NCBI GenBank assembly: GCA_026387355.1
Contig: JAPLLW010000008.1
Coordinates: 1,016-65,015 of the forward strand
Source: Candidatus Omnitrophota bacterium
GTDB taxonomy: Bacteria > Omnitrophota > Gorgyraeia > Gygaellales > Profunditerraquicolaceae
DNA length: 64,000 bases
Direction of reading: 5' to 3'
Shown: positions 275 through 42,654 of the stretch, one piece after another
How positions within the stretch are numbered: position 1 is the stretch's first letter
Layout: each line of letters begins with the position of its first letter
Position numbers and translations under genes: made by a program
Notes under the pieces: generated by a model
Told to the model about the DNA's origin: nothing
Seen by the model: only the letters and a program-made list of their open reading frames with translations
The model's database searches: none

Positions 275-2419
275 TTGCCAGCCGAAATAATAGAAAACCT
301 TGAACAGCAGATAGATATAGCTCTTTATCTGCGAATATTAAATAAAAGAAAAAACCAAATACTCTTAATTGCCGCACTTTTTACTTCCCTCGCAGTTTTA
401 CACTCATTTATCGCCAAGCCGATATACAGAGCTGAGACCAAAATTCTAATTCAGAAGAAGACGCCTAGGGCTAGTACTCTTCAAGACGCTGTAAGTGGGC
501 AGCCCTCTTCTTACGGCGCAGATTCCCAGTATGATTTCGAGTTTCTCCTAACCCAAATATCTATATTAAAAAGCAGTATTTTGGCCAAAAGGGTTGTTGA
601 TGTTATGGATTTTGCTAATCGGGCTAAATTACCCAGTAATTGTAATTCCACGGAAGTGCTTCAGAAGATGATGAATGCGGAAAACCCCAGAAAGACTTAT
701 GTAGTTAAATTATCAATAGAATCAACAGACCCCATTCTTGCTGCAGATGTAGCCAATAATTATACCAATGAGTATATTAAATTTGTTTTAAAAGAAAAAT
801 CCGCTGTTTCGGACAAGGCCTTAGGTATGCTTCAACAGCGTAGAGATGAACTTAGGAAGAAACTAGAAGAATCAGAATTGGAGCTTCAGAAATATGGGGC
901 AGAAAACAAGATAACCTCTTTTGAGGAAGAAAAACAAGATCAGATAAAAAGGATCTCTAATTTAAATGCGGATTTGACAGAGGCAAGGTCTAAAAGGCTA
1001 GAGTTGGAAGCGCTTTATAACAAATATCAGCGTTTGATTAATGATGGGGTGAGCCTGGAAGAATTGCCTTTAGTTAAAGATAACCCGGGTATCCAAGAAC
1101 TCAAATCAGATTATTTTAAGAAAGAAGCAATTTATACAGAAAATCTTCAGAAATTTACTGAAGATCATCCGATAATGGTTCAGCTTAAAACGGAACTCAG
1201 TAATTTAAGGGGAAGAATCAGGCAGCAGATTATTAAGGCTATAGAAGGGATTAAATCTGAATATGAAACATCTGCCTCGCGCGAAGAGGGATTAAGTAAG
1301 GCCTTAGAGGAAGAAAAAAAACTTAGTTGGGAGATTAACGATAAGACGGTAAAGTTGGAAGATTTACAAAGAGAAGTAAATGCAGATCGCGAGCTTTATA
1401 CTGATTTGGTGCAAAAGATGAAGGAGGTAGATTTAGGCAGCGAGTTTCTCATAAGCAGTATAACTGTATTAGATAAGGCAGAAGTTCCTTCTAGGCCGAT
1501 AAAACCTAAGAAATTAAGAGATATAATTTTGGCTTTATTCTTTGGTATTTCCGGGGGCATCGCGCTGGCATTTTCTCTAGAAAGAATTGACCTTTCTGTG
1601 AGAACCAGCGAAGATATAGATAATTATCTGGGATTACCATTCCTGGGATTCATCCCCGCATTAAATTTTAACAATAATATTGCTGAGAACCGGCTGATTA
1701 TTTATTCGGATTCCCAGTCAAGCGCCTCGGAAGCCCTGCGTAGCATCCGTGCGAATATTAACTTTATCTTCTCCGGCCAACCTAAGCCGCTTGCCTTTTT
1801 AATTTCATCAAGCTTTCCTCAAGAAGGAAAGAGCTTTAGCGCCGTGAATATAGCTATTGCTATGGCCAGTGCTAATGAAAAAGTTTTATTAGTTGATTGT
1901 GATTTACGCAGGCCGACCCTACATAAAATTTTAGAAGTCGATAATGGAGTCGGACTCACCGATTATTTATCTAAATCAGCTAAGTTGGAGCAGGTTATTC
2001 AAAATACAATTGTGGATAATTTATCAGTAGTTACCTGCGGTAAGCTTCCGAATAATCCCGTTGAGCTTCTTGAGTCGGAGGTGATGAAAAGGTTTATTGA
2101 AGAAGCAAAAAATAGTTATTTCCGTGTTATTATTGATTCGGCTCCGATTCTTTCGGTCACCGATTCGCTTATTTTATCCCACTTGGTCGATGGTGTCATT
2201 TTTGTGATCCGAAGCGGTAAGACTCCGTGCGGGATAGTCGTGGATGTAAAGAAGAAACTGTTGAACGCAAGTGCGAAAATTACAGGAGTAGTATTAAACA
2301 GGATCAATATGGAAAAAGAAAGCTACTACTATAATTATTATCAATATGAATCTGAAAAAAAAGATGGCCAGCATACTCATAAGCATAAAAAAAGTAGAAA
2401 TAGGCTTTCTGAGGACTAA
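275..2419 (+). CDS. Wzc-like polysaccharide co-polymerase / bacterial tyrosine autokinase (BY-kinase, PCP-2a type)
   Basis: TTG start at 275 with RBS aagagga at 261-267. N-terminal Wzz-like TM plus long coiled-coil periplasmic region, second TM, then C-terminal P-loop ATPase with Walker A 'PQEGKS', 'VLLVDCDLRRP', Walker B-like 'VIIDSAP', and Tyr-rich tail 'YYYNYYQY'. Confidence 0.85.
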   Translation: MPAEIIENLEQQIDIALYLRILNKRKNQILLIAALFTSLAVLHSFIAKPIYRAETKILIQKKTPRASTLQDAVSGQPSSYGADSQYDFEFLLTQISILKSSILAKRVVDVMDFANRAKLPSNCNSTEVLQKMMNAENPRKTYVVKLSIESTDPILAADVANNYTNEYIKFVLKEKSAVSDKALGMLQQRRDELRKKLEESELELQKYGAENKITSFEEEKQDQIKRISNLNADLTEARSKRLELEALYNKYQRLINDGVSLEELPLVKDNPGIQELKSDYFKKEAIYTENLQKFTEDHPIMVQLKTELSNLRGRIRQQIIKAIEGIKSEYETSASREEGLSKALEEEKKLSWEINDKTVKLEDLQREVNADRELYTDLVQKMKEVDLGSEFLISSITVLDKAEVPSRPIKPKKLRDIILALFFGISGGIALAFSLERIDLSVRTSEDIDNYLGLPFLGFIPALNFNNNIAENRLIIYSDSQSSASEALRSIRANINFIFSGQPKPLAFLISSSFPQEGKSFSAVNIAIAMASANEKVLLVDCDLRRPTLHKILEVDNGVGLTDYLSKSAKLEQVIQNTIVDNLSVVTCGKLPNNPVELLESEVMKRFIEEAKNSYFRVIIDSAPILSVTDSLILSHLVDGVIFVIRSGKTPCGIVVDVKKKLLNASAKITGVVLNRINMEKESYYYNYYQYESEKKDGQHTHKHKKSRNRLSED

Positions 2420-2557
2420 GGCCTTTTTTAATCCGGGATTCCGATTTGTTAAAAGATAATGAATTTCTAGATTTTGGTCAATTAGCTGCGTATCTTTTAC
2501 CGTTAAAAACCTTCCACGCCTTGCAAATAAGATTTATATACCCTAGAAGGAGGAAAA

Positions 2558-2938
2558 ATGTTCTTTAAAAAGTCTGATCCTACAGATAAAAGGGTACACA
2601 AAAGGTTAAAGGCTCGCCTTCTGGTTAAGTATCACCTCAAAGATGGTATGTCTGAGAATGTGGTAACCAATTTAAAGAATATTAGCGTTGGGGGCGTATC
2701 TTTTGCTACCGGAATTTCAGTAACAAAGAACAGTTTCTTAGAATTAGAGATATTATTTTTGCCCGAGGGATATCTTTTGAAAACTAAGGGAAAGGTTGTT
2801 TGGGTAAACTTGATAGCTAGGAGTAAGCAGTATCTGTTAGGAATCGAATTTGAGGGATTATCCGAGCAGGATAAAGAATTATTGAATCGGTACATTAACG
2901 AGGCCCTAAAATTTAATAGCAAAAAGAACTTTAAATAA
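2558..2938 (+). CDS. PilZ-domain (c-di-GMP receptor) protein
   Basis: 'KRVHKRLKAR' (RxxxR-type) followed by 'NISVGGVSF' (D/NxSxGG) PilZ signature; about 125 aa; immediately downstream of the Wzc-like gene. Confidence 0.7.
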   Translation: MFFKKSDPTDKRVHKRLKARLLVKYHLKDGMSENVVTNLKNISVGGVSFATGISVTKNSFLELEILFLPEGYLLKTKGKVVWVNLIARSKQYLLGIEFEGLSEQDKELLNRYINEALKFNSKKNFK

Positions 2939-2953
2939 GCTCTTATGTAAAGA

Positions 2954-4327
2954 ATGAACACTATAAAGTTATTAATTTTTATCATTTTTTTAGTTGTTAT
3001 GGTTTTAATGGCTTTAAACTCCCCTCTGCCACCTGCTTTAAGCTTGCTTACCATTTCGCTGTTACTTGCGGCTTTGATCTTAGTAATGATGATAAGCGTA
3101 GAACTTCCCATTGCTATCTTGATTCTTGCTATGCTTTTTTCTCCGGAAATAAGCGTTGGGGCAACCGTCTCAAGAGGGATAATTATACGTTTTGATGATA
3201 TCTTCATAATCCTTATTTTTATTATTTGGTTATTCAAAATGGCGGTTAATAAGCAATTAGGCCTCTTGAGACATACCTCGATTAATCTTCCCATTTGGAC
3301 ATATATTTTTATCTGTATTCTTTCTTCGATTAGTGCTTTTTACAACGGTATTGCGCAAAATCGCATTCTTTCAGGGGCATTTTTCATCTTAAAGTACTTG
3401 GAATATTTCTGTGTTTATTTTTTCGTACTCAACAACATAAAGACAGAGAAGCAGCTTAAACTCTTCTACAGTTTTCTTATGTTTACGTATCTGGCAGTAT
3501 GCGTTTATGGCTATATGCAGATTTTTACTTTTTTGCCTTCGGCAGAATCAGGCGCATTTAGGATAACCGCGCCTTTTGAGGGCAAGCCAGGAGAGCCAAA
3601 CACATTATCAGCATATTTAATGCTCTTAATGTCGCTTGCCCTGGGGGGTTTTCTTTATGAGAATAAGTATAGACTTAAGTTAACCTATCTAGCATTATTC
3701 CTATTGGGTATTTATCCGCTTTGCTATACGTTATCGCGTTCCGGGTATATGGGTTTCTTGACAATGTGCGTGGCTACGTTATTAATCGCTAGAAAAAAGA
3801 TTGTTTTTCTACTACCGGTCATCGTTATTCTTACGATGCTATTGTCGTATAATTTACCGGTCCAGGTAAAAAATAGAATTTCAGCTACTTTTGTTGGTAA
3901 GAAATATTCAGTTGGAGATGTTTCTATTGAGATTGATGGTTCGGCTAGGGAAAGAGTCACCAGCTACAAAGATGTGTTGGAGAAGAGGTATCCTTTGCAC
4001 CCGTTTTTAGGGACCGGCACCGCTTCGACCTTTATAGATGGACAATATTTTTCGGTATTAGCAGAGAATGGTTTATTCGGTTTGTTGGCTTTTTTTTGGA
4101 TTATCTTGGCTATTTTTGGTATTTGCAGAAAAAACTTAATTTTATTAAAAAAGGATAATTTCTCTCAGGGGTTAATCAGGGGTTTTTTGGCCGGCTTTAT
4201 TGGGTTATTAGTACATGCTTTGAGCGCAAATACTTTTATTTTGATACGGATTATGGAGCCATTCTGGTTTATAGTAGCTCTAATTGCTGCTTTACCTTTA
4301 GCTTTAGAGAAGAAAGTTAGTGTATAA
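2954..4327 (+). CDS. Wzy-like polysaccharide polymerase / O-antigen ligase family membrane protein
   Basis: About 11 predicted TM helices with a large periplasmic loop near the C-terminus; lies between Wzc and Wzx homologues. Confidence 0.55.
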   Translation: MNTIKLLIFIIFLVVMVLMALNSPLPPALSLLTISLLLAALILVMMISVELPIAILILAMLFSPEISVGATVSRGIIIRFDDIFIILIFIIWLFKMAVNKQLGLLRHTSINLPIWTYIFICILSSISAFYNGIAQNRILSGAFFILKYLEYFCVYFFVLNNIKTEKQLKLFYSFLMFTYLAVCVYGYMQIFTFLPSAESGAFRITAPFEGKPGEPNTLSAYLMLLMSLALGGFLYENKYRLKLTYLALFLLGIYPLCYTLSRSGYMGFLTMCVATLLIARKKIVFLLPVIVILTMLLSYNLPVQVKNRISATFVGKKYSVGDVSIEIDGSARERVTSYKDVLEKRYPLHPFLGTGTASTFIDGQYFSVLAENGLFGLLAFFWIILAIFGICRKNLILLKKDNFSQGLIRGFLAGFIGLLVHALSANTFILIRIMEPFWFIVALIAALPLALEKKVSV

Positions 4328-4333
4328 TAATCA

Positions 4334-5893
4334 ATGTCAGAAGAAAAAGAAAAATTAAGCTTTTCCCATGCAATGATTAGAAATACTACCTGGAATTTGT
4401 TCGGGCAGGGGTGTTTATTTCTTGTCGTTTTCTTTTCCACGCCATTTATCATTCGTACCTTGGGGGTAAATCTATACGGCATTTATGCTTTTGTCAGCGT
4501 AATTATAGGATATTTTTCCTTTCTCCAGCTGGGTCTGGGAGCGGCTTCAATAAAATACATATCTCAATATCTCGCGGCTAAAGAAGAAGAAAAAATAAGG
4601 AGTATATTCTGGGTATGCCTATTCACCAATATCTTTTTGGGGCTGGTAGGGATGGGAATAATCTTTTTGTCTGCTCCGTTCTTAGTGGGGAGGTTTTTAA
4701 AAATGCCCCAGGAGTTAAAAGAAACTTGTATCTTTGTTTTAAAAGCGGGATCGTTTGGATTCCTGATTGCTTTGATCCAAAGTGCGGTAGCTGGGGCAAT
4801 TCAGGCAGCGGGAAGATTCGATACACTAAATCGCGTAAGTGTTCTATTCGGCACGCTTCAGGCCCTCACGGCAGTCGCTATCTTAAAAATGGGTTTTTCA
4901 ATAAAAGGAATGATTATCTCAAACCTAGTAGTTAGTGCCGTAGCTGTGTATGTCTATTGGCTAAATACAAAAAAGATCTATCCGTTTCTAAGGAATCCGT
5001 TTTGGGATGGGAAAGCGTTAATTAAGCTATTCAAGTTTGGAAGCTTTGTTACCGTCTCTTCCGTGGTCAACCCGATATTACTCAATATCGAGAAAATTAT
5101 TTTGACCTCAATGCGCTCCGTAGCCAGCCTTGCTTATTATTCCGTACCATTTTCGCTGGTAGATAGGTTGACTATGATAAGGTCATCTTTTTCAGCTGTA
5201 TTATTTCCTGCTTTCAGCTCTTTGCAGGATTCTTATGAAGCCAAAAAAAGCGAAGTAAATAAAGACCTGCATTTTAGAAGTACCCTGTATATAATTTTTT
5301 TATACTCATTCTTCGCGTTGTTCTTTTTATACTTCGGTAAGGATTTTCTTAAGGTATGGTTAGGCAGTGATTTTGCAAATAATTCTACTAAGGCCCTAGT
5401 TATTTTAGCTTTCGCCGGACTAATTAACGCTTGCGCCGCTCCTTCGATGAATGCGCTTCAGGGGATGGACAGGCCGCATTTACCAGCTATATTCCACGTT
5501 TTTGAAACCGTATTGTATATACCTTTAGCTCTTATTTTAATTTATAAATTTGGCACAACTGGAGCAGCTCTGGCTTGGTTTCTACGTGTTTTATTAGACA
5601 TGCTACTTTTACATAAAGCTTCCTGTGATTTATTAGGAGAAAATATCTTTGTTTGGTATGCGAATATTCTTCGCCGAGCCCTGTCGCCAATACTATTTTC
5701 CGGCCTGTTGTTTTGGTGGCTTGAGAGCCTTAGACTACCTTTATTAAGTCCGTTAACCATCAGTCTTATCATTTGTGTTTTTATCCTTTATGTTTTTATG
5801 GTATGGAGGTGGGGGATGGATAATTTTGACAGAGTAAAAATATCGGATTTTTTAAACATTTATTTAAATAAGTTAATCCTGCGGAGGTCTTAA
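4334..5893 (+). CDS. Wzx-like polysaccharide flippase (MOP/MATE superfamily)
   Basis: About 14 TM helices with a Polysacc_synt-type N-terminus ('TTWNLFGQGCLFLVVFFSTPFIIRTLG'). Confidence 0.6.
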   Translation: MSEEKEKLSFSHAMIRNTTWNLFGQGCLFLVVFFSTPFIIRTLGVNLYGIYAFVSVIIGYFSFLQLGLGAASIKYISQYLAAKEEEKIRSIFWVCLFTNIFLGLVGMGIIFLSAPFLVGRFLKMPQELKETCIFVLKAGSFGFLIALIQSAVAGAIQAAGRFDTLNRVSVLFGTLQALTAVAILKMGFSIKGMIISNLVVSAVAVYVYWLNTKKIYPFLRNPFWDGKALIKLFKFGSFVTVSSVVNPILLNIEKIILTSMRSVASLAYYSVPFSLVDRLTMIRSSFSAVLFPAFSSLQDSYEAKKSEVNKDLHFRSTLYIIFLYSFFALFFLYFGKDFLKVWLGSDFANNSTKALVILAFAGLINACAAPSMNALQGMDRPHLPAIFHVFETVLYIPLALILIYKFGTTGAALAWFLRVLLDMLLLHKASCDLLGENIFVWYANILRRALSPILFSGLLFWWLESLRLPLLSPLTISLIICVFILYVFMVWRWGMDNFDRVKISDFLNIYLNKLILRRS

Positions 5894-6498
5894 TGAAGAG
5901 CGGAGGTTTGAGAAAATATATTAAATTAAAGATAAAAAAATGTTTTTGTATGTTTAAGGGGATTGGTAGTTCTAGGGATGGCGCGTATGTGTCTATATCG
6001 ACGGATTTGAAGAATCCTAGGTGTATCGTATTGGGCGAAGGAGCTGTTTTAGAAAAGCGTGCAAGGCTTTATGCAAACGGAAAGAATTCCCGGGTAGAGA
6101 TTGGAGACTATACTACGATTCTCCCTTTTGCGCTTCTTAAGGCAAATGGCGGAACAATCAAGCTGGGTAAGAGGTGTACTGTTAATGATTATGTCGTACT
6201 TAATGGTCTCGGAGGGATAAATATAGGAGACGATGTTCATATTGCTTCCCATGTAGCTATAGTGGCATCGGAGCACAGGATTGAGAAATTGGGAACCCCA
6301 TATTTTAGCAAGGATATGCAGGGTCAGGGGATTAAGATAGAAAATAGTGTTTGGATTGGAGCAAATGCCGTTATTTTAGACGGAGTTACAATTGGCGCGA
6401 TGTCTGTAATTGGGGCGGGGGCGGTTGTTACTAAAGATATACCTCCTCATTCACTGGCGGTAGGTGTTCCGGCAAGAGTAATTAAGCAATTAGGTTGA
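5893..6498 (+). CDS. Hexapeptide-repeat (left-handed beta-helix) sugar O-acetyltransferase
   Basis: Repeated [LIV]G-x4 hexapeptides: 'IGANAVILDGVTIGAMSVIGAGAVVTKDIPPHSLAVGVPARVI'. Confidence 0.75.
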   Translation: MKSGGLRKYIKLKIKKCFCMFKGIGSSRDGAYVSISTDLKNPRCIVLGEGAVLEKRARLYANGKNSRVEIGDYTTILPFALLKANGGTIKLGKRCTVNDYVVLNGLGGINIGDDVHIASHVAIVASEHRIEKLGTPYFSKDMQGQGIKIENSVWIGANAVILDGVTIGAMSVIGAGAVVTKDIPPHSLAVGVPARVIKQLG

Positions 6499-6504
6499 TT
6501 TAAC

Positions 6505-7587
6505 ATGAGAATCATTTTAGCTACACCTCAGGATAAAACAGTATTGGGCGTAATCGGTTCTTATTGTAAGGCGGCACTCCAGGCTCAAGGAAATGAAGTA
6601 TCGGTTTTTGATTTCCGGAAAGAGTTTTATGCAAAGAGCACATTAATGCAGCGCTTAAAATCGGCAGTCAGATCTGCTCTTCCTTTCCTGCCTTCTTTGC
6701 GCGAATTACCAGCGGTAAAATTGGTAATAGATGATAAGGTCAACCGAATGCTGCTGGATCGTTCTGTAAAATTCAAGCCGGATATATTACTGGTACTTTG
6801 CGGTGAGAACATATCTCTTGATACCCTGATTAAGATAAAGAATGTATCAGGCACATTTACAGTTAACTGGTTTTACGATACCTTAATCTCTCCGCATAGA
6901 GAAAGTTTAGTGAGATCAGTGCTGCCTTGTTACGATTATTTGTTTATAGTGGATTCTCTCGGTGTGTTAAAGCGAATAAAAGCAGACTTTAATAAAGTCG
7001 CTACCCTGCCTTTGGCCTGTGAACCCTTGGTGCACAAGCGCGTAGTTTTATCGGATAAAGAAGCTAGGATATACGGCAGTGATGTTGCTTTCGTTGGGAC
7101 AGTAACCCCGGAACGCGAAAAGATATTAGAAGAATTAAGCGGGTTTAACCTCAAGATTTGGGGGCGCTGGAGCCGTAAATCTGCTTGCTTAAATAGTTGT
7201 TACCAAAAGAAAGATGTATATGCAGAGGAAGCAGTTAAGATCTATAACTCTTCTAAAATAATACTTGATGTTCATTCGCTTTTCGGAAGAGAGAAAGAAA
7301 TCTATAATGTTACCCCGCGATTATTTGAGGTCCCTGCATCAGGAGCATTTTTATTAACAAACTATGTTTCTCAAGTGAGCGATTTTTATAAGATTGGTGA
7401 AGAAATTATCACCTATGGAGATGTAAATGAGTTAAAGAACCAGGTTTCTTATTATCTAAAGCATCCCGATGAACGGATAAACATAGCCGAAAGAGGCTAT
7501 CAGAGGGCGCATAAAGAGCATACTTACGCAAATCGCGTGACAAAGCTTCTGGAGACCGTAAAAAATATGTACACGAGTATTAACTAA
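6505..7587 (+). CDS. CgeB-like / GT1-like glycosyltransferase-family protein
   Basis: C-terminal region 'LFEVPASGAFLLTNY...GDVNELKNQVSYYLKHPDERINIAERGYQRAHKEHTY' resembles the C-terminal domain of CgeB/DUF3880 GT1-like proteins. Confidence 0.4.
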   Translation: MRIILATPQDKTVLGVIGSYCKAALQAQGNEVSVFDFRKEFYAKSTLMQRLKSAVRSALPFLPSLRELPAVKLVIDDKVNRMLLDRSVKFKPDILLVLCGENISLDTLIKIKNVSGTFTVNWFYDTLISPHRESLVRSVLPCYDYLFIVDSLGVLKRIKADFNKVATLPLACEPLVHKRVVLSDKEARIYGSDVAFVGTVTPEREKILEELSGFNLKIWGRWSRKSACLNSCYQKKDVYAEEAVKIYNSSKIILDVHSLFGREKEIYNVTPRLFEVPASGAFLLTNYVSQVSDFYKIGEEIITYGDVNELKNQVSYYLKHPDERINIAERGYQRAHKEHTYANRVTKLLETVKNMYTSIN

Positions 7588-9906: not shown

Positions 9907-9908
9907 GG

Positions 9909-10976: not shown

Positions 10977-10996
10977 ATGCTAGGGTAAGAATTAAG

Positions 10997-12025: not shown

Positions 12026-12051
12026 GACAGTTTATATGTAAATTTAATACT

Positions 12052-13072: not shown

Positions 13073-13098
13073 ATCAACAGATTGAAGAAAAGTTAGGT

Positions 13099-14247: not shown

Positions 14248-14264
14248 TTAAAGGACAGAAGCAT

Positions 14265-15332: not shown

Positions 15333-15333
15333 A

Positions 15334-16233: not shown

Positions 16234-16246
16234 TATATTTTAGAAT

Positions 16247-19235: not shown

Positions 19236-19243
19236 TTGCAAAT

Positions 19244-20419: not shown

Positions 20420-21845
20420 AAAAATCATTTTTATTATTCTTTTTGTTTTAGTTTTAACTCAAAGTGCATCTTTAGCCGAAGATTATTATAATCTAGCCGG
20501 ATGCATTCACGTAAATTCAAACGTCGGAAAAGGAAGATATTCGCTAGAAGAGATTATTGGTTTGGCTAGGTCTAATGGTATTCAGATAGTTATATTAGGA
20601 GATATACTTACTTCTAGGGTGGAGTACGGTATTTGGCCTTTGCGTAATATCTTAAAAGTCTTTGATGATAGCAGCTCTTTGTTAAATTACGGAGTAAGCA
20701 AATATTTAAATAAAATTAAAAGTTTTACTAATGATATATCGGATATTATTATAATGCCGGGAATAGAAGTGGCTCCTTTTTATTACTGGGCCGGTACTCT
20801 CCTTAAGAGGGATTTAGTTCTTCATGATCCTAGCAAGCATATGTTTATCGCTGGCTTAGATAAACCATCTGATTTATTGGGGATGCCTGTTATAGGTAAT
20901 CATAACGCAGGCAAATATGGTCTAATATCGATAATTCTAGCTTGGCCATTATTGGTTATGGGAATTGGCGTATATTTGTTTTTTAAAATACCCGTTAAAA
21001 AGGAAAGGAGAACGGTCGGCATTATCTTTTTATCTCTAGGGGTTATTTTCTTCATAAATAATTTTCCGTTTAAAAAGGCTATGTTCGATGCATATAGCAT
21101 AAAGAACCGGATTTTTTATTACCAGCAGCTGATAGATTATGTAAATAAAAAGGGGGGAGTTGTTTTTTGGCTCCAGCCTTGTGGGGAGTCAGGCGGTGTT
21201 TATAAGGGGGTTAAGTATGAGACATTGCCCTTTACGGAAGACCTGTTTTACACCCAAGGATATACCGGATTTTCCGTGTTTTACGAAGGAGAAGAAATGG
21301 TTAAGCCGATGGGCCCGTGGGATAAGCTATTACTTGAGTATTGTCTGGGCAAAAGAAATAGGCCTGTGTGGGCAATAGGCGATATGGATTACAGTTACGA
21401 GGAAGAAAACCATAAGAACTTCGGCGAGGTGCAGACGGTTTTTCTGGTAAAAGATAAAACCAAGGAAGCGGTAGTCAGGGCCCTTAAAAACGGGAATATG
21501 TATGCTTATTATTCCCGCGACCTGAAGAATCAATTGAGGCTGGATAAGTTTGAGGTCCGCGATAGGCTTACGGGGTCTTCTGCCATAATGGGCCAAGAGG
21601 TTTCTTGTTTTTCGCCTGCTGAAATAGCTATTAATATCTCAGGTCCTGAGGCTATTAGGGGGGGGTCTTCTTTAAGGCTTATTCGTAATGGTATGGTTAT
21701 CCAGGTCTTCCAGATAAAGAATTTACCCTTTAACACGGTTTTTATTGATGATTATTTCGTAAGCAGAGAGAAGTGTTATTACCGGTTGGAGGTAGAGGGG
21801 ATTGTGGCTAATCCTGTATTTGTTACTTTTAAAGACCTAAAATAA
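20391..21845 (+). CDS. Membrane-anchored hypothetical protein with a possible degenerate PHP-like region
   Basis: N-terminal signal/TM 'MKNLSLRMLKKIIFIILFVLVLTQSASLA' and a central TM pair. 'CIHVNSNVGKGRYSLEEIIGLARSNGIQIV' faintly resembles the start of a PHP phosphoesterase domain, but no full HxH motif is present. Confidence 0.35.
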   Translation: MKNLSLRMLKKIIFIILFVLVLTQSASLAEDYYNLAGCIHVNSNVGKGRYSLEEIIGLARSNGIQIVILGDILTSRVEYGIWPLRNILKVFDDSSSLLNYGVSKYLNKIKSFTNDISDIIIMPGIEVAPFYYWAGTLLKRDLVLHDPSKHMFIAGLDKPSDLLGMPVIGNHNAGKYGLISIILAWPLLVMGIGVYLFFKIPVKKERRTVGIIFLSLGVIFFINNFPFKKAMFDAYSIKNRIFYYQQLIDYVNKKGGVVFWLQPCGESGGVYKGVKYETLPFTEDLFYTQGYTGFSVFYEGEEMVKPMGPWDKLLLEYCLGKRNRPVWAIGDMDYSYEEENHKNFGEVQTVFLVKDKTKEAVVRALKNGNMYAYYSRDLKNQLRLDKFEVRDRLTGSSAIMGQEVSCFSPAEIAINISGPEAIRGGSSLRLIRNGMVIQVFQIKNLPFNTVFIDDYFVSREKCYYRLEVEGIVANPVFVTFKDLK

Positions 21846-21884
21846 ACCTGTTGATTAAAAGAGGCGTTAATATATAATAGTAAC

Positions 21885-22571
21885 ATGGTAGTTGCTGTCC
21901 ATCAGCCGAATTATTTGCCATGGCTAGGCTTTTTTCATAAAATAGATAAATGTGACACTTTTGTCTTTCTGGATAATGTCCAGTATGAGAAAAGAGAGTT
22001 TCAGAATAGAAATAAGATAAGAACCAAGGAAGATTTTCATTGGCTGACCGTGCCTGTGATTACAAAAGGCCTTTATACGCAAACTATAAGAGAGGTCTTG
22101 GTTGATAACACCCAGGAGTGGCAAAAGACGCATTGGGGGCTAATTTCAACGAATTACGGTAATTCCCCTTATTTTTCTGAGCATCGTAAATTCTTCTCAG
22201 AAGTCTATGCGCAAACATGGGTTAGATTGGTAGATTTAAACGTTTCGTGTATAAACTATATTTTAGATTACTTGGGTATTAAAAAGCCTGTGTGTTTTGA
22301 GTCCTCTATTGGTATTCAGTCTTTTCACACGCAGCGGATTATTGATATATGTAGAAAATTGAACGCGGATACATATTTATCCGGTCTCGGAGCTAAGGAG
22401 TATCTGGAAGAAGATAAGTTTAAAGAGGCAAGCATTAAGCTTGCCTATCAGGATTTTGTTCATCCCGAGTATAAGCAGGTCTATAGTCCGTTTATTCCGC
22501 AGATGTCTATAATTGACCTGATATTTAACTGCGGGAAGGAAGGCATAAATATCTTAAGGGGGCAAAAATGA
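21885..22571 (+). CDS. WbqC-like family protein
   Basis: 'VAVHQPNYLPWLGFFHKI' is the WbqC family signature. Confidence 0.75.
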   Translation: MVVAVHQPNYLPWLGFFHKIDKCDTFVFLDNVQYEKREFQNRNKIRTKEDFHWLTVPVITKGLYTQTIREVLVDNTQEWQKTHWGLISTNYGNSPYFSEHRKFFSEVYAQTWVRLVDLNVSCINYILDYLGIKKPVCFESSIGIQSFHTQRIIDICRKLNADTYLSGLGAKEYLEEDKFKEASIKLAYQDFVHPEYKQVYSPFIPQMSIIDLIFNCGKEGINILRGQK

Positions 22572-23182
22572 ATATTTTAGCTATCGGCGCGCATCCCGAT
22601 GATATCGAATTCGGTTGTGGTGGCACTTTGATTAAATGTAAGAAGGCTGGGCATAAAATATATACTTTAGTGCTTAGCAAGGGCTCAATGGGTGGCAGTG
22701 CATTTATACGCCAGAGAGAGCAGAAGGCAGCTGCCCGTTTTTTGAACGTAGCAAAGATTTATTGGGGGAATTTTTCCGATACCAACATTATATTGAACCA
22801 AAAGTTAATCCGGGTAATAGAGGATGTAGTTAAGGAGACTAAGCCGGATATAGTATTTTTTAATTATTTTTCGGATACTCACCAGGATCATCGTGCTCTC
22901 GCCGAAGGAGCGATATCTGCCACTAGATACGTAAAAAAAGTCTTATTTTATGAGACTCCTACTGCGCAATGTTTTGATCCGGATGTGTTTATGGATATCA
23001 CGGATTGCCTGACTGAGAAATTGAAATTGCTTATGTTGCACTCATCGCAGACCCATAAAACTCGCGTGCCTAAGCTAACCATACTTGAATCCGCCACCTC
23101 TTGCGCTAATTTCCGGGGATTCCAGGCACGGGTTAAATATGCCGAAGGCTTTAAATCTTTAAGGATGATGTTAGAAATATGA
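22568..23182 (+). CDS. PIG-L/LmbE-family N-acetylglucosaminyl deacetylase
   Basis: 'ILAIGAHPDDIEFGCGG' (AHPDDE motif) and 'HQDH'. Confidence 0.8.
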   Translation: MNILAIGAHPDDIEFGCGGTLIKCKKAGHKIYTLVLSKGSMGGSAFIRQREQKAAARFLNVAKIYWGNFSDTNIILNQKLIRVIEDVVKETKPDIVFFNYFSDTHQDHRALAEGAISATRYVKKVLFYETPTAQCFDPDVFMDITDCLTEKLKLLMLHSSQTHKTRVPKLTILESATSCANFRGFQARVKYAEGFKSLRMMLEI

Positions 23183-24216
23183 ACCTGATAATCGTTTTGC
23201 TAGCTGCCTTACTTATTACCATTTTATTAACTCCGCTTTGTCGAGGTGTTGCGATATCCTTGCGTATCGTAGATTATCCCAATGAAAGAAAAGTGCATCG
23301 TGTACCTACCCCATTATTGGGCGGTGTCTCTATTTTTATATCATTTGTTTTAATTCTTGCTTTTACGGGCCTTTTGAAAAATAAGGCAGTTCTCAGTATT
23401 ATTGCAGGGGCTACAATTATATCGGTTTTTGCTGTTTATGATGACGCCAAAAGAATAACCGCCGCCTCAAGGCTTCTTTCCCAGATTGTTGCCTCTTTCG
23501 TAATTATCAGATCAGGTATCGTTTTTACTTTTATGCCAAATACCGCATGGGGAAAGATTATCGAGATTATTCTCACCGTGATTTGGATCTTAGGGATTAC
23601 CAATGGTTTAAATTATCTGGATGGTTTGGATTGTTTGGCTGGAGGCCTGGTGGTTGTGAGCAGTTTTGGGTTTTTAGGCGTCGCCCTGCTTACCAATCAG
23701 TCTGTATTACAAATCTGTGCCGTAGCATTGGCGGGTGCGACCATAGGGTTCCTGCCGTTTAATTGCAAAAAAAGGATATTCCTAGGTGATATGAGCAGCA
23801 CTTTGGGCTTTATCCTTGCTGCCGTTGCTATTATGGGAACTTGGGCAGAGTATAGCCTAATCGATTTGACTATTCCTATACTTATCTTAGGTATTCCCGT
23901 ATTCGATATGATTTTTACTACTATCAGCCGTATTTATACCGGTAAGATTAAGTCCGCAGTACAATGGATGGAGTATGCCGGATTGGATCACTTCCACCAT
24001 CGTTTACTGAACTTAGGACTCAGCCCTGATTCAGTGGTTGTTTTTATCTGGGCAACGAACGTTGTATTATGCGCAAGCGCCCTGGTTCTTTGGGGGACGA
24101 GGAACTATCATTCAGTATTAATGCCGCTTTTGCTCGTTTTCCAGGCGGTGATAGTTTTTATTTTGATTAGCGTTTTGATGGTTTTCGGTAAACATAAGAA
24201 AATTAAGATTAAATAA
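23179..24216 (+). CDS. Polyprenyl-phosphate sugar-1-phosphate transferase (MraY/WecA, GT4 family); candidate initiating transferase
   Basis: 'VHRVPTPLLGGVSIF' and 'NGLNYLDGLDCLAGG'; multi-TM protein. Confidence 0.8.
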   Translation: MNLIIVLLAALLITILLTPLCRGVAISLRIVDYPNERKVHRVPTPLLGGVSIFISFVLILAFTGLLKNKAVLSIIAGATIISVFAVYDDAKRITAASRLLSQIVASFVIIRSGIVFTFMPNTAWGKIIEIILTVIWILGITNGLNYLDGLDCLAGGLVVVSSFGFLGVALLTNQSVLQICAVALAGATIGFLPFNCKKRIFLGDMSSTLGFILAAVAIMGTWAEYSLIDLTIPILILGIPVFDMIFTTISRIYTGKIKSAVQWMEYAGLDHFHHRLLNLGLSPDSVVVFIWATNVVLCASALVLWGTRNYHSVLMPLLLVFQAVIVFILISVLMVFGKHKKIKIK

Positions 24217-24224
24217 AGACAGAT

Positions 24225-25046
24225 ATGTATGAACGATATTGGCAGTTAAAAGAAAAGCCTTTTGAAAATACCCCTAACCCGCACTTCGCATATTATTCTC
24301 CAAAACACGAAGAGGCTTTAATGCGCATGCTCTATGCTATAAATGAGCATAAAGGTTTTGCCGTGCTTACCGGAGACTACGGTAGCGGGAAAACCTTATT
24401 GAGTAGGCTATTGCTTCAGGAGCTAAGTAAAGATGAGAAGAGGTGTAATGTTGCTTTGATAGTTAATCCACTGCTTTCAGCCATAGAGTTCTTAAGAGAG
24501 ATTATTTATCAGCTTGACGGTAGCGACCACAAAGAAGATAAGCTTACTCTTTTACATATGCTTAATGACTACCTCTACCAGGGCCTGAAAAATAAGAAGG
24601 AGACAGTAGTTATCGTTGACGAAGCGCAGCTAATCCCTGAGAGCTTGTTTGACGAATTAAGGTTACTGCTCAATTTTCAGTTAGATGACAGGTATCTTTT
24701 GAGCCTTATCTTTATAGGACAGCCAGAACTTATCAATATTATAAAAAAAGTAAAACAATTAGAACAGCGTATTGCTGTTAGATATCATTTAACCGGGCTT
24801 GAAGAGGCAGAGGTTAAGAGCTATATAGCGCATCGTTTGCAGGTCGCAGGATGTGAAAAACAGATTTTTGAGGATGACGTTTGTAAAACTATCTATAACC
24901 GTACTGCGGGTATACCTAGAAAAATAAATATGATTTGCGATATGAGCTTAATGATTGGCATGATTAAGAAGAGTGCTATAATTAATAATGAGATAGTTTT
25001 GGAAGTGATCGCGGATTATAATGATCAATTTAGAAACGATATTTAG
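24225..25046 (+). CDS. ExeA/GspA-like AAA ATPase (resembles the ATPases associated with exosortase/PEP-CTERM EPS loci)
   Basis: Walker A 'GDYGSGKT'; Walker B 'VVIVDEAQ'. Confidence 0.6.
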   Translation: MYERYWQLKEKPFENTPNPHFAYYSPKHEEALMRMLYAINEHKGFAVLTGDYGSGKTLLSRLLLQELSKDEKRCNVALIVNPLLSAIEFLREIIYQLDGSDHKEDKLTLLHMLNDYLYQGLKNKKETVVIVDEAQLIPESLFDELRLLLNFQLDDRYLLSLIFIGQPELINIIKKVKQLEQRIAVRYHLTGLEEAEVKSYIAHRLQVAGCEKQIFEDDVCKTIYNRTAGIPRKINMICDMSLMIGMIKKSAIINNEIVLEVIADYNDQFRNDI

Positions 25047-25055
25047 GGGTAATAT

Positions 25056-26123
25056 ATGGTAAGACTTGCTGATTTAATAAAGCAAAAGATGGAGGAGGCT
25101 CGTAAGGCTGGCGAGTATCCGGATAAGCCACAGGAGAAGCTTAAAAATAAGGCCGAGTTAGCTAAGGCAATCTGCGAAATAAATAAAGCTAAGTCGGAGG
25201 AGTCCTGCGCTTATTATGAGGATGTACGCAAGCTAATTAAGGAAGCATTTTTTCAGCTTAGTAAAGATAGCAATTTTGAGCTTGCGTCTATCAAGGATAT
25301 TGTTAGCAAGGTAGTCGACCAGCTGGTTATCGATGGATCAAAATTATTGAAATTAGCTATCTCTAAGCCTGCGCCCGAAGATTATATCATATGCCATTCT
25401 GTCAATGTTTGTATTTTCTCCATAGAAATTGGTTTGTCGATGAAATACAATAAATCAGACCTCAACACAATAGGATTGGGCGCTTTATTGCATGATATAG
25501 GCCTGGCTAAGATGACCAGTATTTTTCTAACCGACCCCACAAAATTATCTTCAACCGATGTGAATCTGTTGAAGTCTCATCCTCTGGTCGGGTTTGAGAT
25601 AGCGGGCAAATATGTGGATATCGCAGAGGACGCAAAGAAAATAATTGCTCAGCATCATGAAAGATATAATGGCTCAGGTTATCCGCAAGCTCTTAAAGGA
25701 GACGCTATAAGCAAATTTAGCCAGATCGTGGGGTTAGCTAATTTATTTGAGTCGAAGACCCATCCGCGTCCAGGAAGAAAGAAGATGGTCCCCTATGAAT
25801 TTATGAAGGAGCTATTCACTCACGAAGAGAATCTGTTTGCTACGGATATTATTAAGGCTATGGTTAAAAGGTTTGGTATTTATCCTATCAGCAGCTGGGT
25901 TATGTTAAACAGTAACCAGATCTGCCAGGTTTGCGACGTTAATGAGAACTTCCCCTTAAGGCCTATAGTAAATGTGCTATTTGACGCTGAAGGCAAAAGG
26001 TTGTCGCAGCCTAAGATATTAAACCTGGCTGAGCAGAAGAGTGGTGTCCATATAAAAGAGGCTTTTGGCGAAACAGATCTTATTATCGGCGAAAAAGACA
26101 TAAAAAAGAGGGAGGTGAGGTAG
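25056..26123 (+). CDS. HD-GYP domain c-di-GMP phosphodiesterase
   Basis: 'HDIGL' and 'HHERYNGSGYP' (HD and GYP motifs). Confidence 0.8.
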   Translation: MVRLADLIKQKMEEARKAGEYPDKPQEKLKNKAELAKAICEINKAKSEESCAYYEDVRKLIKEAFFQLSKDSNFELASIKDIVSKVVDQLVIDGSKLLKLAISKPAPEDYIICHSVNVCIFSIEIGLSMKYNKSDLNTIGLGALLHDIGLAKMTSIFLTDPTKLSSTDVNLLKSHPLVGFEIAGKYVDIAEDAKKIIAQHHERYNGSGYPQALKGDAISKFSQIVGLANLFESKTHPRPGRKKMVPYEFMKELFTHEENLFATDIIKAMVKRFGIYPISSWVMLNSNQICQVCDVNENFPLRPIVNVLFDAEGKRLSQPKILNLAEQKSGVHIKEAFGETDLIIGEKDIKKREVR

Positions 26124-26125
26124 AT

Positions 26126-26308
26126 ATGAAGATTCTTATGAAAGGGCTTTTATTTTTAGCGACCATATCCGTGTTTGTTGGTATGGTTTCCCGGGTTACT
26201 TTGAAACCGATTTTTTCTATCGAAGCGAATGCTTTTTTGCGTTTCGCCGCTCTTTGCATTCTTTTTGTTATTGGTTTGGCGGCATTAAAATTAGCTGAGA
26301 AACAATAA
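26126..26308 (+). CDS. Small membrane protein (hypothetical)
   Basis: 60-aa ORF with two hydrophobic helices, directly after the HD-GYP gene; RBS 'agggaggtgagg' upstream. Confidence 0.3.
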   Translation: MKILMKGLLFLATISVFVGMVSRVTLKPIFSIEANAFLRFAALCILFVIGLAALKLAEKQ

Positions 26309-26370
26309 CAGTTAATAAAACTTTAGAAATCCAGGACATCGTTTTTTTTGCTATAAAGGAACCTAAGAAT

Positions 26371-26715
26371 ATGATAAAGGATAGATTCGAAGAAAAAAGA
26401 AAATATCCGCGCGTTAACAAGGATGCTTACATTGATTATTCTTTTAAGACTCCTAAGGGTCAGGTTAACGAAGGGTTACGTTTAAGCGTAAATATAAGCG
26501 CCGGCGGACTGATGTTTGTGACTTCTAGATGCTTAAAGAAAGGAATAAAATTAAAGTTAAATATTAATATCGGGAGCGTTTCAAAGCCGATTAAGGCTTT
26601 TGCTAAGGTGGCTTGGGTTAAAAGGCGTGAAGACGGGGAATATGCCGTCGGAGTTGTTTTTTATCGTATCAGTGAGGCAGGCAGAAAGAAAATACTTCTT
26701 TATTCTTTATTCTAA
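26371..26715 (+). CDS. PilZ-domain protein
   Basis: 'RKYPRV' (RxxxR) followed by 'NISAGGLMF' (DxSxGG); 114 aa. Confidence 0.7.
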   Translation: MIKDRFEEKRKYPRVNKDAYIDYSFKTPKGQVNEGLRLSVNISAGGLMFVTSRCLKKGIKLKLNINIGSVSKPIKAFAKVAWVKRREDGEYAVGVVFYRISEAGRKKILLYSLF

Positions 26716-26729
26716 AGTTCTCGCCGTTA

Positions 26730-28820
26730 TTATCTGGGATTTTCTTCTTCGGAATAGTATTGTTTATACTGGTAATATTTGTAATAATAGTCGGAATCCG
26801 TTCGGAATAGGCTGGAGATATCATTTAGAACAATTCCCGTAACATTTGCCTTCAAGGTCACAAACTCTTCCTTTGTGCGTATTAAGACCTGGCGGGATAT
26901 TTTTCCGAGCTTATGCACTAATAATACCGAGTCTACTTTAGGAGCTAAAACTAAAGCGTCTGCTAGAGGCAAAGCAGGAGGGGTGTCTAGGATTATAACC
27001 TCAAAATTGGCGCTTAAATCTTTCAATAAATTATCCATTTCCTCAGAACTTAATAATTCGGTAGAGTTCGGTGTTCTTGACCCGGAAGTGATGATGCTTA
27101 AGTTGTCTAGCCCTGTAGTTTTTAAGGCTTGATCCCAATCAGCCTCCATCAGGATGTCGACTAGATTTCTGGCTGTTTCTTCCCATGGCGCAGAAGCGGT
27201 TAAAATTTCCGTAAGCCCAGGGTAACTTTTCTTGAAACCAAAGGCTTTATGTATAGAAGGTTTTCTTAGGTCTGCATCAATAAGCATAACTTTATGCCCC
27301 ATTTGAGCAATAATGATGGCAAGATTTATGCTGGTCATGCTTTTACCTTCCATGGGGCTGGAGCTAGAAACAAGAATTTTTTTACCCAGTTCTTTATCGA
27401 TCCCGAGTTTCTGAAATAAATTTGCTTGAAGCATGCGGAAGGCTTCTTTTACTATAGATTTCTCTTCATAATTAATAAGCAATCTCTTGGTGGCCTGCAC
27501 AGGGTTCGCTGTTCTTTCTTTTCTGAGTATGTAATGCCGCAGGTTTTCTAATAAAGTTTCCTTAAAAGATTTCTTTTTTTCATCGGGCAATTCGAAATAC
27601 GGTATGAGCCCGATTACCTGTATCCCGGTAACTTTTTCCACCTCTTCTATGGTTCTTACCGAAAAGTCAAGTTGTTCGAAGATGAAGGCAGCAATAATAC
27701 CGGCAAGTGCTCCTGTGAGAAGGCCAAAGATTATTATCAAGGGTAAGTTAATGTTGATAGGGGTGCGAGATTCTACCGCCCGGTCCACGATAGTGACCGA
27801 TTGCGCCTTTTTGCTCTCCTCATTAATCCGGGCATCATCAAGTTTGCTTTTTAGAAGGGTGTAGAGTTTCTCATCGTTAGTAATTTCTCTTTTTAGGCGC
27901 ATCTCCTCTAGTTGTAGATTAGGAGGAATCTCGATAGTAGAAATGACCTCGGAATCCTGAATATCGTCTTTTTTCTGGAAGGTCTCCAACTGCTTCTTTA
28001 AAGACTCGTTTTCGCTTTTTATTGCGATTACATTTGGGTGGGATTCTGTATAAACTGTCAGCAGTTCCCGTAATTTATCTTCATTGCTTGTGAGTTTATT
28101 TTTTAAGGATAGATAGGGAAGGTTCGCCTGTTGTCTTTTTTTGATTTCGATAAGCTGTTCCCGCTTATATTTGTCAATCCCCTCGTTATGTTTCTTTAAT
28201 GCCTCCTCTGAAGCGGCTAGCCTTTTTGAGATCTCTGCCAGGCGTCCTTCTATGAAATTTACTACCATAGCCGCCTGTCTGGATATTTCATTTTTTGCCT
28301 CTGTAACATAGACTTCGGCGATTTTATTAGCAATATCCTTTGCTTTCTTGGGATCAGTATTTTTTACAGTGATCTTAACCACGTTGCTTTCCGGTAAGGC
28401 CTCTGCGGAAATATTGCTCACTAAAGAGCCGACGATTGCGTTAATGCTGTTTTGATCGGAATCTTGAGGTATAAGATTTAATTCTCTGGCTACTTTTTCA
28501 ATAAGTTGTCTGCTTGTGATAATCGTTGCTTGAGAATTAAGTAAATCTGCGGCCGGCTGTTTAGAAAGGCCCGGCATATTGATGTCAGCATTGGAAAACT
28601 CGATGACTATTTTTACGGTTGTGCTTGCTTGGAAGATGGGGGTGCGGGTATTGCCGTAGATGATATTTATCAGAAAGACAACCAGAAAGACGGAGAGGAT
28701 TACCGTTTTTCTTTTACGAAAGATCCGGATATAATCTCTGAGGTTTAATTCGTATTCAGGCATAGTTTTCTTGCTTTTTACTATATCATAGTATAAAATT
28801 AATGTCAAGGAGCCCCACAT
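26730..28820 (-). CDS. Wzc-like polysaccharide co-polymerase / BY-kinase (second paralogue)
   Basis: Two TMs plus coiled-coil periplasmic domain; Walker A 'SPMEGKS'; 'VMLIDADLRKP'; 'VIILDTPP'; C-terminal 'DYYYKYYQYKQYY'. Confidence 0.85.
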   Translation of the reverse strand: MWGSLTLILYYDIVKSKKTMPEYELNLRDYIRIFRKRKTVILSVFLVVFLINIIYGNTRTPIFQASTTVKIVIEFSNADINMPGLSKQPAADLLNSQATIITSRQLIEKVARELNLIPQDSDQNSINAIVGSLVSNISAEALPESNVVKITVKNTDPKKAKDIANKIAEVYVTEAKNEISRQAAMVVNFIEGRLAEISKRLAASEEALKKHNEGIDKYKREQLIEIKKRQQANLPYLSLKNKLTSNEDKLRELLTVYTESHPNVIAIKSENESLKKQLETFQKKDDIQDSEVISTIEIPPNLQLEEMRLKREITNDEKLYTLLKSKLDDARINEESKKAQSVTIVDRAVESRTPININLPLIIIFGLLTGALAGIIAAFIFEQLDFSVRTIEEVEKVTGIQVIGLIPYFELPDEKKKSFKETLLENLRHYILRKERTANPVQATKRLLINYEEKSIVKEAFRMLQANLFQKLGIDKELGKKILVSSSSPMEGKSMTSINLAIIIAQMGHKVMLIDADLRKPSIHKAFGFKKSYPGLTEILTASAPWEETARNLVDILMEADWDQALKTTGLDNLSIITSGSRTPNSTELLSSEEMDNLLKDLSANFEVIILDTPPALPLADALVLAPKVDSVLLVHKLGKISRQVLIRTKEEFVTLKANVTGIVLNDISSLFRTDSDYYYKYYQYKQYYSEEENPR

Positions 28821-34788: not shown

Positions 34789-34801
34789 GAGGGGGAGTAG
34801 A

Positions 34802-35617: not shown

Positions 35618-35624
35618 ATAACTT

Positions 35625-37084: not shown

Positions 37085-37096
37085 CCCTCATTTAGC

Positions 37097-37150: not shown

Positions 37151-37172
37151 TTTAATAATAAAGGGGGTTAAT

Positions 37173-42533: not shown

Positions 42534-42654
42534 CTATAGGCCTTTCTTATATTTTTAATCCAAAAATAATTTGCTTGACAGGTATGAATTTATTTAATAA
42601 AATGGTTTCAGGTTAGATTAGTAAAATTTTACTATATTTTAAGGAGCGTTTAGA

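Follow-up and report, generated by a model that had tools for sequence, protein, structure and literature searches.

The genome assembly GCA_026387355.1 of a Candidatus Omnitrophota bacterium contains, on contig JAPLLW010000008.1 (positions 1,016 to 65,015, a stretch of 64,000 nucleotides hereafter called the window), an exopolysaccharide (EPS) cluster in which two genes for PilZ proteins, predicted receptors of cyclic di-GMP (c-di-GMP), adjoin two genes for Wzc-type tyrosine autokinases. At least two further loci, neither orthologous to the window, also combine PilZ with Wzc and the outer-membrane exporter Wza, whether or not an ExeA-like ATPase and an HD protein are present. These results suggest that PilZ may be linked to Wzc-type export at the level of the whole module and that the link may not be peculiar to this genome, a reading that we hold tentatively and at somewhat under an even chance; that Wzc itself would be the direct target of PilZ is held with lower confidence than this module-level link. 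Most capsules and many biofilm polysaccharides are products of Wzx/Wzy pathways that export through Wzc/Wza. Control by c-di-GMP and PilZ is known for synthase-dependent systems, the one class with which reviews connect PilZ (PMC12220298), and little is understood of how Wzx/Wzy pathways are controlled post-translationally (PMC12802240). The original prediction, made from the sequence of the window, was more specific: each Wzc would be served by a dedicated PilZ receptor, with an HD-GYP phosphodiesterase as the local degrading enzyme.

The six genes on which that prediction was built were all recovered in place by the listing of open reading frames (ORFs) and by profile searches:

275-2419, plus strand: Wzc1, a polysaccharide co-polymerase of class 2a (PCP-2a) and bacterial tyrosine kinase (BY-kinase) of 714 aa, with Wzz, GNVR and AAA_31 domains (TIGR01007, 174.9 bits)
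2558-2938, plus strand: PilZ1, a stand-alone PilZ protein of 126 aa (PF07238, 52.1 bits)
25056-26123, plus strand: HD-GYP-family protein of 355 aa with no REC domain (Pfam HD_5, 69.9 bits, and HD)
26126-26308, plus strand: ORF of 60 aa with two hydrophobic segments (ORF listing)
26371-26715, plus strand: PilZ2, a stand-alone PilZ protein of 114 aa (PF07238, 49.7 bits)
26730-28820, minus strand: Wzc2, PCP-2a and BY-kinase, with Wzz, GNVR and AAA_31 domains (TIGR01007, 150.6 bits)

Both PilZ proteins scored above the gathering cutoff of PF07238 (22.5 bits), and both Wzc proteins above the cutoff of TIGR01007 (108 bits). PilZ1, which is preceded by a good ribosome-binding site, carries RVHKR at aa 12-16 (2591-2605) and NISVGG at aa 41-46 (2678-2695), and PilZ2 carries RKYPR at aa 10-14 (26398-26412) and NISAGG at aa 41-46 (26491-26508). 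In an alignment of 67 stand-alone PilZ sequences, the RxxxR and NxSxGG motifs, which the original prediction had noted in both proteins, were in register with the conservation of the family, and both motif Arg and both Gly columns were at least 90% conserved. The AlphaFold2 models had mean confidence (pLDDT) values of 89.5 for PilZ1 and 91.2 for PilZ2, both with the six-stranded beta-barrel known from solved complexes with c-di-GMP, followed in PilZ1 by a long C-terminal helix (aa 103-123). Foldseek assigned a probability of 1.00 to both models against MotI/DgrA, the PilZ domain of Alg44 with c-di-GMP, YcgR and BcsA, and MotI/DgrA was the top match of the window PilZ proteins in sequence as well as in fold. 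By profile, motifs and modelled fold, PilZ1 and PilZ2 are thus predicted to be canonical receptors of the c-di-GMP type.

Across all ORFs of the 64 kb, a local hidden Markov model (HMM) scan matched no PilZ genes other than PilZ1 and PilZ2 and no Wzc genes other than Wzc1 and Wzc2. Each PilZ gene adjoins a different Wzc gene, an arrangement that arose in shuffled gene orders with a probability of about 0.011 when the 28 genes of the cluster were permuted and of about 0.0025 for the whole window. The spacing is less suggestive of one-to-one pairs. PilZ1 is indeed the next gene after Wzc1, as had been claimed, but it lies 138 nt downstream of it and only 15 nt upstream of a Wzy gene. The convergent orientation of PilZ2 and Wzc2 excludes their co-transcription, and the gap between them is 14 nt, correcting the 15 nt given before. 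A long plus-strand operon (WecA, ExeA, HD-GYP and the small 60-aa gene) ends with PilZ2, and only that small gene with its two hydrophobic segments parts PilZ2 from the HD-GYP gene, in agreement with the original prediction.

We then considered close relatives of the window PilZ proteins that were chosen by PilZ similarity alone, blind to context. The best single-domain match, P0060 (E 6e-18), belongs to a locus found on 15 contigs (L065-L067) with the order MerR, PilZ, WzcA (5 nt after PilZ), Wza, WzcB, ExeA-like ATPase and HD protein, in which the genes overlap or nearly abut. In L065, WzcA is canonical and Wzc1-like (27% identical to Wzc1), and WzcB (11282-13060) is Wzc2-like (28% identical) with a degenerate kinase (SKT P-loop, DANFINP, no Tyr tail). 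The ExeA-like ATPase is 53% identical to that of the window and Wza 38%, and the HD protein aligns with the window HD-GYP protein over its full length, unassigned C-terminal domain included, at 29% identity (E 3e-45). The second relative, P0141 (L063, 8001-9539), combines a canonical PilZ domain (RAFPR, NISGGG), a hydrophobic segment and a BBP2_2 barrel in a single ORF; the genes that follow it directly encode Wza, Wzc (33% identity with Wzc1) and a Wzy-TPR protein, and the 8 kb to each side contain neither an ExeA nor an HD homologue. A further locus (L024) has a PilZ1-like gene, C-terminal helix included, divergent from an ExeA-like ATPase, and another (L051) has an HD-GYP gene 2.7 kb from a PilZ gene. 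The module-associated PilZ proteins are 30-39% identical to one another, and RxxxR is present in all. A background of 0 in 41 PilZ loci gives an upper bound of about 7%, from which the chance that both of two informative look-ups would fall in Wzc/Wza operons is roughly 0.005 or less.

As an aside, the long helix and the signal-peptide-like or anchor-like hydrophobic segment (…AFLILVFITLSVLYAGNTCAA) that precede the BBP2_2 beta-barrel in P0141 make an odd topology for a cytoplasmic sensor; a separate barrel protein could arise from an internal start at Met113.

Several observations weigh against a module-level link. No PilZ gene was found within 6-8 kb of Wzc in any of 13 independent other Wzc loci, made up of three of the nearest Wzc1 homologues (whose identity is no higher than 35%), three that are more distantly related and seven loci of species-representative genomes; the last seven were distant matches from a genome scan with the Wzc2 kinase domain, the species of the window being absent from the GTDB representatives. 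Likewise, none of the 41 loci of a metagenome scan seeded with NIS[VA]GG had Wzc beside PilZ, most of these contigs being short or carrying di-PilZ. Fusions of PilZ to Wzc were absent from the best 150 PilZ matches and from 43 Wzc homologues. Of the four look-ups of close PilZ relatives only two were informative, the contigs reached by the other two being too short for a verdict; L063 and L065 share a sample series and may not be independent at the level of the organism, and in the L065 PilZ protein a Gly replaces the motif Ser. No GGDEF or EAL gene and no diguanylate cyclase was seen in the window as annotated to 50.4 kb. The arrangement of PilZ2 itself, convergent to Wzc2, points the same way, as does its rapid evolution: against an 86%-identical relative (P0047, L010) PilZ2 showed 25 synonymous and 17 nonsynonymous codon differences, compared with 49 and 9 for the C-terminus of Wzc2, and it was the least constrained of the four genes compared with L010. 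In P0047 (L010, 380-724), moreover, RKYPR reads RKFPP, a single CGC to CCC change having replaced the second Arg of RxxxR (R14P); this could be a real loss of binding or an assembly error on the single contig.

The reach of synteny is short. In a word-indexed search, orthologues of the window PilZ proteins were found in the same strain (L001-L006) and in relatives of about 86-90% identity only, so conservation at the level of orthologues can be assessed to about the genus and no further. L010 preserves the order HD-GYP, 60-aa gene, PilZ2 and convergent Wzc2, and its 60-aa ORF is retained with 10 synonymous and 9 nonsynonymous, mostly conservative, codon differences; synteny in L010 and L001-L006 is trivial. 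An exhaustive profile search returned 4604 PilZ proteins, with a gap between the self matches and a generic tandem PilZ protein at 4e-31. A tblastn search of plasmids with P0060 gave no match. As for adjacency in related genomes, on which the original prediction was to stand or fall, it was lacking in the 13 Wzc and 41 PilZ loci, and it was found in the P0060 and P0141 operons, with L024 showing PilZ beside the ATPase.

The HD-GYP-family protein was compared by alignment with PmGH (4mcw), V-cGAP3 (5z7c) and three other HD-GYP proteins. Its motifs lie at 25392-25409 (H), 25488-25505 (HD, with LHDIG), 25653-25685 (HHERYNGSGYP) and 25734-25754 (LANLFES). In PmGH numbering it retains H189, H221, D222, H250, H276, H277, GYP and R314, and the DGxGYP motif reads NGSGYP. 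Three positions are changed: K225L (HDIGL in place of HDIGK), D305N and D308E (LANLFES in place of ADxFDA). The full set of PmGH metal ligands is therefore incomplete, with six His/Asp ligands present and Asn at D305, and the equivalent of E185 is ambiguous owing to a 2-residue indel. In PmGH, K225A and D308A behave as metal-ligand mutants and D305A is strongly impaired (PMC4159591). The L065 orthologue (13854-14876) has the metal ligands, Met at K225 and no GYP loop. The three substitutions together with this GYP-less orthologue make the local degrading enzyme of the original prediction doubtful. The window protein is probably a weak or inactive phosphodiesterase, and it is more likely to be a sensor, a scaffold or a hydrolase of another substrate than a dedicated local sink of c-di-GMP. 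Fusions of PilZ to HD-GYP in both domain orders occurred among the PilZ matches (P0089, P0181), and degenerate HD-GYP domains are documented as regulators, one of them fused to PilZ.

Both kinases carry the motifs expected of BY-kinases. Those of Wzc1 are Walker A (PQEGKS, 1817-1834), A' (LLVDCDLRRP, 1886-1915), B (VIIDSAP, 2126-2146) and the Tyr cluster (YYYNYYQY, 2324-2347); those of Wzc2 are Walker A (PMEGKS, 27339-27356), A' (MLIDADLRKP, 27258-27287), B (VIILDTPP, 26976-26999) and the C-terminal Tyr cluster YYYKYYQYKQYY (26754-26789). Against the NCBIfam equivalogs of E. coli Wzc/Etk they scored 189-201 bits, far below the cutoffs of 1068-1248, which marks them as family members and not as orthologues of these proteins. 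Wzc1 and Wzc2 are 26% identical and PilZ1 and PilZ2 28%. A recent tandem duplication as the source of the two PilZ-Wzc pairs is ruled out, since the paralogues are merely 26-28% identical. The true start of Wzc2 is probably Met20 at 28763, giving 677 aa; this start is favoured by the alignment with Wzc1 and by a strong promoter-like site at 28808-28780 (minus strand, 11/12 with TG). The longest Wzc2 ORF begins at 28820, 1 nt from the start of the divergent TPR gene at 28822.

Searches of the cluster with Pfam, NCBIfam and a CpsB HMM recognised neither a low-molecular-weight protein tyrosine phosphatase (Wzb) nor a CpsB PHP phosphatase. A 495-aa ORF at 20358-21845 gave a weak PHP-like (CehA/McbA metallohydrolase) NCBIfam match at aa 256-489 and no Pfam match; it is possibly a divergent PHP phosphatase and, besides the HD protein, the only candidate Wzc phosphatase of the cluster. 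In three PilZ-less homologue loci, a CpsB/PHP phosphatase gene follows Wzc directly (L007, 10262-11035; L018, 12969-13775; L019, 10184-10954), and the CpsB HMM, which matched in L007, L018 and L019/20 only, had no match in the three PilZ-bearing modules (window, L063, L065), a very small sample. This distribution suggests that PilZ/HD and CpsB may be alternative regulators.

We propose the following model. An export module resembling those of XrtA/PEP-CTERM systems (two PCP-2a BY-kinases, Wza and an ExeA-like ATPase) would have gained a c-di-GMP input layer, formed by the two stand-alone PilZ receptors of canonical type together with one HD-GYP-family protein. When c-di-GMP is high, the PilZ proteins would bind the nucleotide through RxxxR and NxSxGG and, as small adaptors in the manner of MotI, MapZ or YcgR, dock on a cytoplasmic part of the polymerisation and export machine, where they would license or tune the assembly and export of the polymer post-translationally. 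The leading candidate target would be the kinase ring of Wzc, because it is the sole cytoplasm-exposed component common to all three complete PilZ-bearing loci: L063 is without an ExeA or HD homologue, and L065 is without Wzy next to PilZ. The receptors would not match the kinases one to one, PilZ2 belonging genetically with the WecA-ExeA-HD-GYP operon and PilZ1 with the Wzy-Wzx operon.

The strict form, in which PilZ1 serves Wzc1, PilZ2 serves Wzc2 and an active HD-GYP phosphodiesterase keeps local c-di-GMP low, now appears very unlikely. Two PilZ and two Wzc genes in adjacent pairs, pairs of old paralogues as expected of long-standing parallel partners, the translational coupling of PilZ to WzcA in L065 and the retention of H, HD, H, HH, GYP and R314 in the HD-GYP protein all agree with it. 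Its dedicated receptor per BY-kinase, however, is not borne out by L065, with one PilZ for two Wzc-like genes, nor by L063, where one PilZ domain accompanies one Wzc; PilZ2 sits convergent to Wzc2 in the ExeA-HD-GYP operon, PilZ1 is nearer to Wzy than to Wzc1, the second Arg of the PilZ2 RxxxR is lost in a close relative, and K225L, D305N, D308E and the GYP-less orthologue speak against the enzyme. The same operon structure can be read in favour of targets other than Wzc, with PilZ1 acting on Wzy/Wzx and PilZ2 on the ExeA-like ATPase, the HD-GYP-family protein or the WecA-type transferase. Each of these is a plausible alternative target, and the reading as a whole, although on the unlikely side, deserves serious weight: PilZ is fused to HD-GYP in P0089 and P0181 and to a degenerate HD-GYP in the literature, L024 joins PilZ to an ExeA-like ATPase, L051 has HD-GYP 2.7 kb from PilZ, and by analogy EpsW activates the transferase EpsZ in Myxococcus (PMC12802240). 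The two other operons speak against it: in L063 PilZ stands with Wza, Wzc and Wzy and no ExeA or HD homologue, and in L065 it abuts WzcA, three genes away from ExeA and HD, with no Wzy or WecA homologue next to it.

It is also conceivable, if rather improbable, that the adjacency has no mechanistic meaning, the PilZ proteins being general-purpose adaptors (for example of motility or pili) in or near EPS clusters, and the gene order a product of drift and shared ancestry among related uncultured lineages. The absence of the pairing from the 13 Wzc and 41 PilZ loci, the huge size of the PilZ family (4604 representative matches), the position of the best overall PilZ match (P0048) beside pilin-like and HAMP genes, and the relaxed constraint on PilZ2 would all be expected in that case. 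A double adjacency at a probability of about 0.01 even within the cluster would not, nor would two PilZ relatives, found blind to context, at the head of Wzc/Wza operons that have five families in common with the window at 27-53% identity; two of two by chance comes to roughly 0.005 or less under the upper bound of about 7%. The module-level link, finally, can be carried further to a c-di-GMP-gated variant of Wzc/Wza (PCP-2a and outer-membrane polysaccharide export, OPX) systems, in which a PilZ·c-di-GMP adaptor on the BY-kinase ring would replace or override the phosphatase-driven phosphorylation cycle, and the conserved, GYP-degenerate HD metal-hydrolase would be a phosphotyrosine phosphatase or a second c-di-GMP sensor in place of a phosphodiesterase. 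This extension is prompted by the lack of Wzb/CpsB in the PilZ-bearing modules and by the several PilZ-less relatives with CpsB directly after Wzc, and we regard it as speculative and unlikely.

If the module-level link is true, the recurring PilZ + Wzc/Wza module would extend direct second-messenger gating beyond synthase-dependent systems to the other major secretion class, and its recurrence in other uncultured lineages hints at a little-studied on/off switch for a common export machine. The module would name concrete proteins to test, and the compact seven-gene operon of the L065 type lends itself to reconstitution in a heterologous host. Two lineages differ in how the catalytic site of the conserved HD-GYP-derived protein is decaying; the protein may be a pseudo-enzyme or a repurposed hydrolase.

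A full-text search of the literature found no report pairing PilZ with Wzc, BY-kinase, co-polymerase, chain length determinant or PEP-CTERM. The window nevertheless resembles several known systems in part. As in the BcsA cellulose and Alg44/Alg8 alginate systems, a locus for polysaccharide secretion contains the gene of a canonical PilZ barrel (RxxxR, (D/N)xSxxG), the complex of Alg44 PilZ with c-di-GMP is among the best structural matches to both window models, and the presumed shared logic is that c-di-GMP licenses polymer production post-translationally. In those systems, however, PilZ is fused to or part of a processive synthase complex of glycosyltransferase family 2 (GT2), whereas the window PilZ proteins are free-standing; the window moreover has Wzx/Wzy with Wzc/Wza export, glycosyltransferases of the GT4 and GT9 types and no processive synthase, which places it outside the synthase-dependent class. 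MotI/DgrA (B. subtilis), MapZ (P. aeruginosa) and YcgR (E. coli) are small c-di-GMP-binding PilZ adaptors, as the window PilZ proteins are predicted to be, and they dock on a partner, which in the known cases is a flagellar stator or rotor protein or the methyltransferase CheR1, whereas the genomic partners in the window are polysaccharide export genes.

With the E. coli Wzc/Wzb/Wza systems (group 1 capsule, colanic acid) the window shares a periplasmic Wzz and GNVR region, a C-terminal kinase domain with Walker A/A'/B, the Tyr cluster, Wza, Wzx and Wzy. It differs in scoring far below the equivalog cutoff (189 against 1068 bits), in the lack of a recognised Wzb/CpsB, and in its PilZ, HD-GYP-family protein and ExeA-like ATPase. 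The order of the core (OPX, chain-length determinant, Tyr kinase, ATPase) is the same as in XrtA/PEP-CTERM loci such as that of Nitratidesulfovibrio vulgaris pDV. In NCBIfam, Wzc2 (TIGR03007 and TIGR03018), the ATPase, Wza and several glycosyltransferases had their best matches among families of the XrtA system, all below cutoff (bits/cutoff: TIGR03015 239.5/324.5, TIGR03007 131.7/278.9, TIGR03018 138.5/230.7, TIGR03027 148.5/180). Among the cluster ORFs covered by the NCBIfam and Pfam scans there was neither an exosortase XrtA nor a PEP-CTERM protein, which sets the cluster apart from true XrtA loci, and its chain-length determinant and kinase are fused, unlike those of canonical XrtA loci, which on inspection had no PilZ or HD. 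Two plasmid XrtA-type loci (N. vulgaris pDV and Palleronia) had OPX, chain-length determinant, Tyr kinase and ATPase, and neither PilZ nor an HD protein; with such a core lacking both, PilZ and HD look like an added layer.

Two further systems bear on the regulators. Pectobacterium ECA3548 (PilZN-PilZ-inactive HD-GYP) likewise links altered catalytic residues to PilZ; in the window, by comparison, PilZ and HD-GYP are separate genes and the HD and HHE motifs are intact, with changes at K225, D305 and D308. In Myxococcus xanthus, EpsW-EpsZ provides a small single-domain signalling protein that is encoded with a Wzx/Wzy EPS pathway and acts post-translationally (PMC12802240), but EpsW, a phosphorylated receiver domain, is no c-di-GMP receptor and acts on the initiating transferase EpsZ instead of the export module.

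Pfam and NCBIfam profile searches of the ORFs delimited a single Wzx/Wzy-type EPS cluster at 275-30638. It begins with Wzc1, PilZ1, Wzy and Wzx, followed by about 17 kb of biosynthesis genes; the WecA-type transferase, ExeA-like ATPase, HD-GYP gene, 60-aa gene and PilZ2 come next, and the 3' end consists of the convergent Wzc2 and then a divergent TPR protein and Wza-type exporter. Intergenic gaps range from -62 to +62 nt, three larger ones excepted. Besides the six genes above, the cluster contains the following:

2954-4327, plus strand: Wzy-like polymerase (Pfam Wzy_C)
4334-5893, plus strand: Wzx/MOP flippase (NCBIfam MOP flippase)
5893-23182, plus strand: repeat-unit biosynthesis genes (NCBIfam and Pfam)
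23179-24216, plus strand: WecA/MraY-family initiating phosphoglycosyl transferase (Pfam Glycos_transf_4; TIGR02380-like)
24225-25046, plus strand: ExeA-like AAA_22 ATPase, a relative of the XrtA/PEP-CTERM-associated ATPase (TIGR03015, E 4e-71)
28822-29418, plus strand: TPR protein (Pfam TPR)
29451-30638, plus strand: Wza-type OPX outer-membrane exporter (TIGR03027-like, E 1.4e-43)

The Wzx/Wzy/Wzc/Wza gene set is thus complete, and the presence of the Wzy-like polymerase and the Wzx flippase defines the pathway as Wzx/Wzy-dependent. The biosynthesis region encodes an acetyltransferase, three GT4 and one GT9 glycosyltransferases, three methyltransferases, an aminotransferase, a radical SAM protein, a WbqC-like protein and a BshB-like deacetylase. 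The ExeA-like ATPase, with Walker A at 24372-24395, is the best-conserved member of the module. The 60-aa ORF (26126-26308) matched no family in the Pfam and NCBIfam search. An Rfam scan of the whole window found no riboswitch, that for c-di-GMP included; the window has no tRNAs.

Within the biosynthesis region, a seemingly empty stretch of about 1 kb in the tightly packed cluster (12026-13098) is a decayed GT9 (heptosyltransferase-like) paralogue, which is 42% identical over 242 aa to the GT9 at 8722-9906 and has at least six in-frame stops. Mirrored gene blocks suggest an old segmental duplication at 7587-16233: GT4_b, GT9, methyltransferase MT1 and unk1 (7587-12025) are mirrored by the GT9 pseudogene, GT4_c, MT2 and unk2 (12026-16233), with identities of 37% for MT1/MT2, 33% for GT4_b/GT4_c and 24% for unk1/unk2. 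The paralogous ORFs at 10997-12025 and 15274-16233 (342 and 319 aa, 24% identical) had no Pfam or NCBIfam match. Beyond the EPS cluster, 33819-50357 holds unrelated housekeeping, efflux and lipid genes, including a YkuD L,D-transpeptidase, AccA, PadR and MarR regulators, an OEP-AcrB efflux pair (37625-42042), two adjacent ketoacyl synthases, a B12-radical SAM enzyme and cyclase/polyketide-cyclase-like genes.

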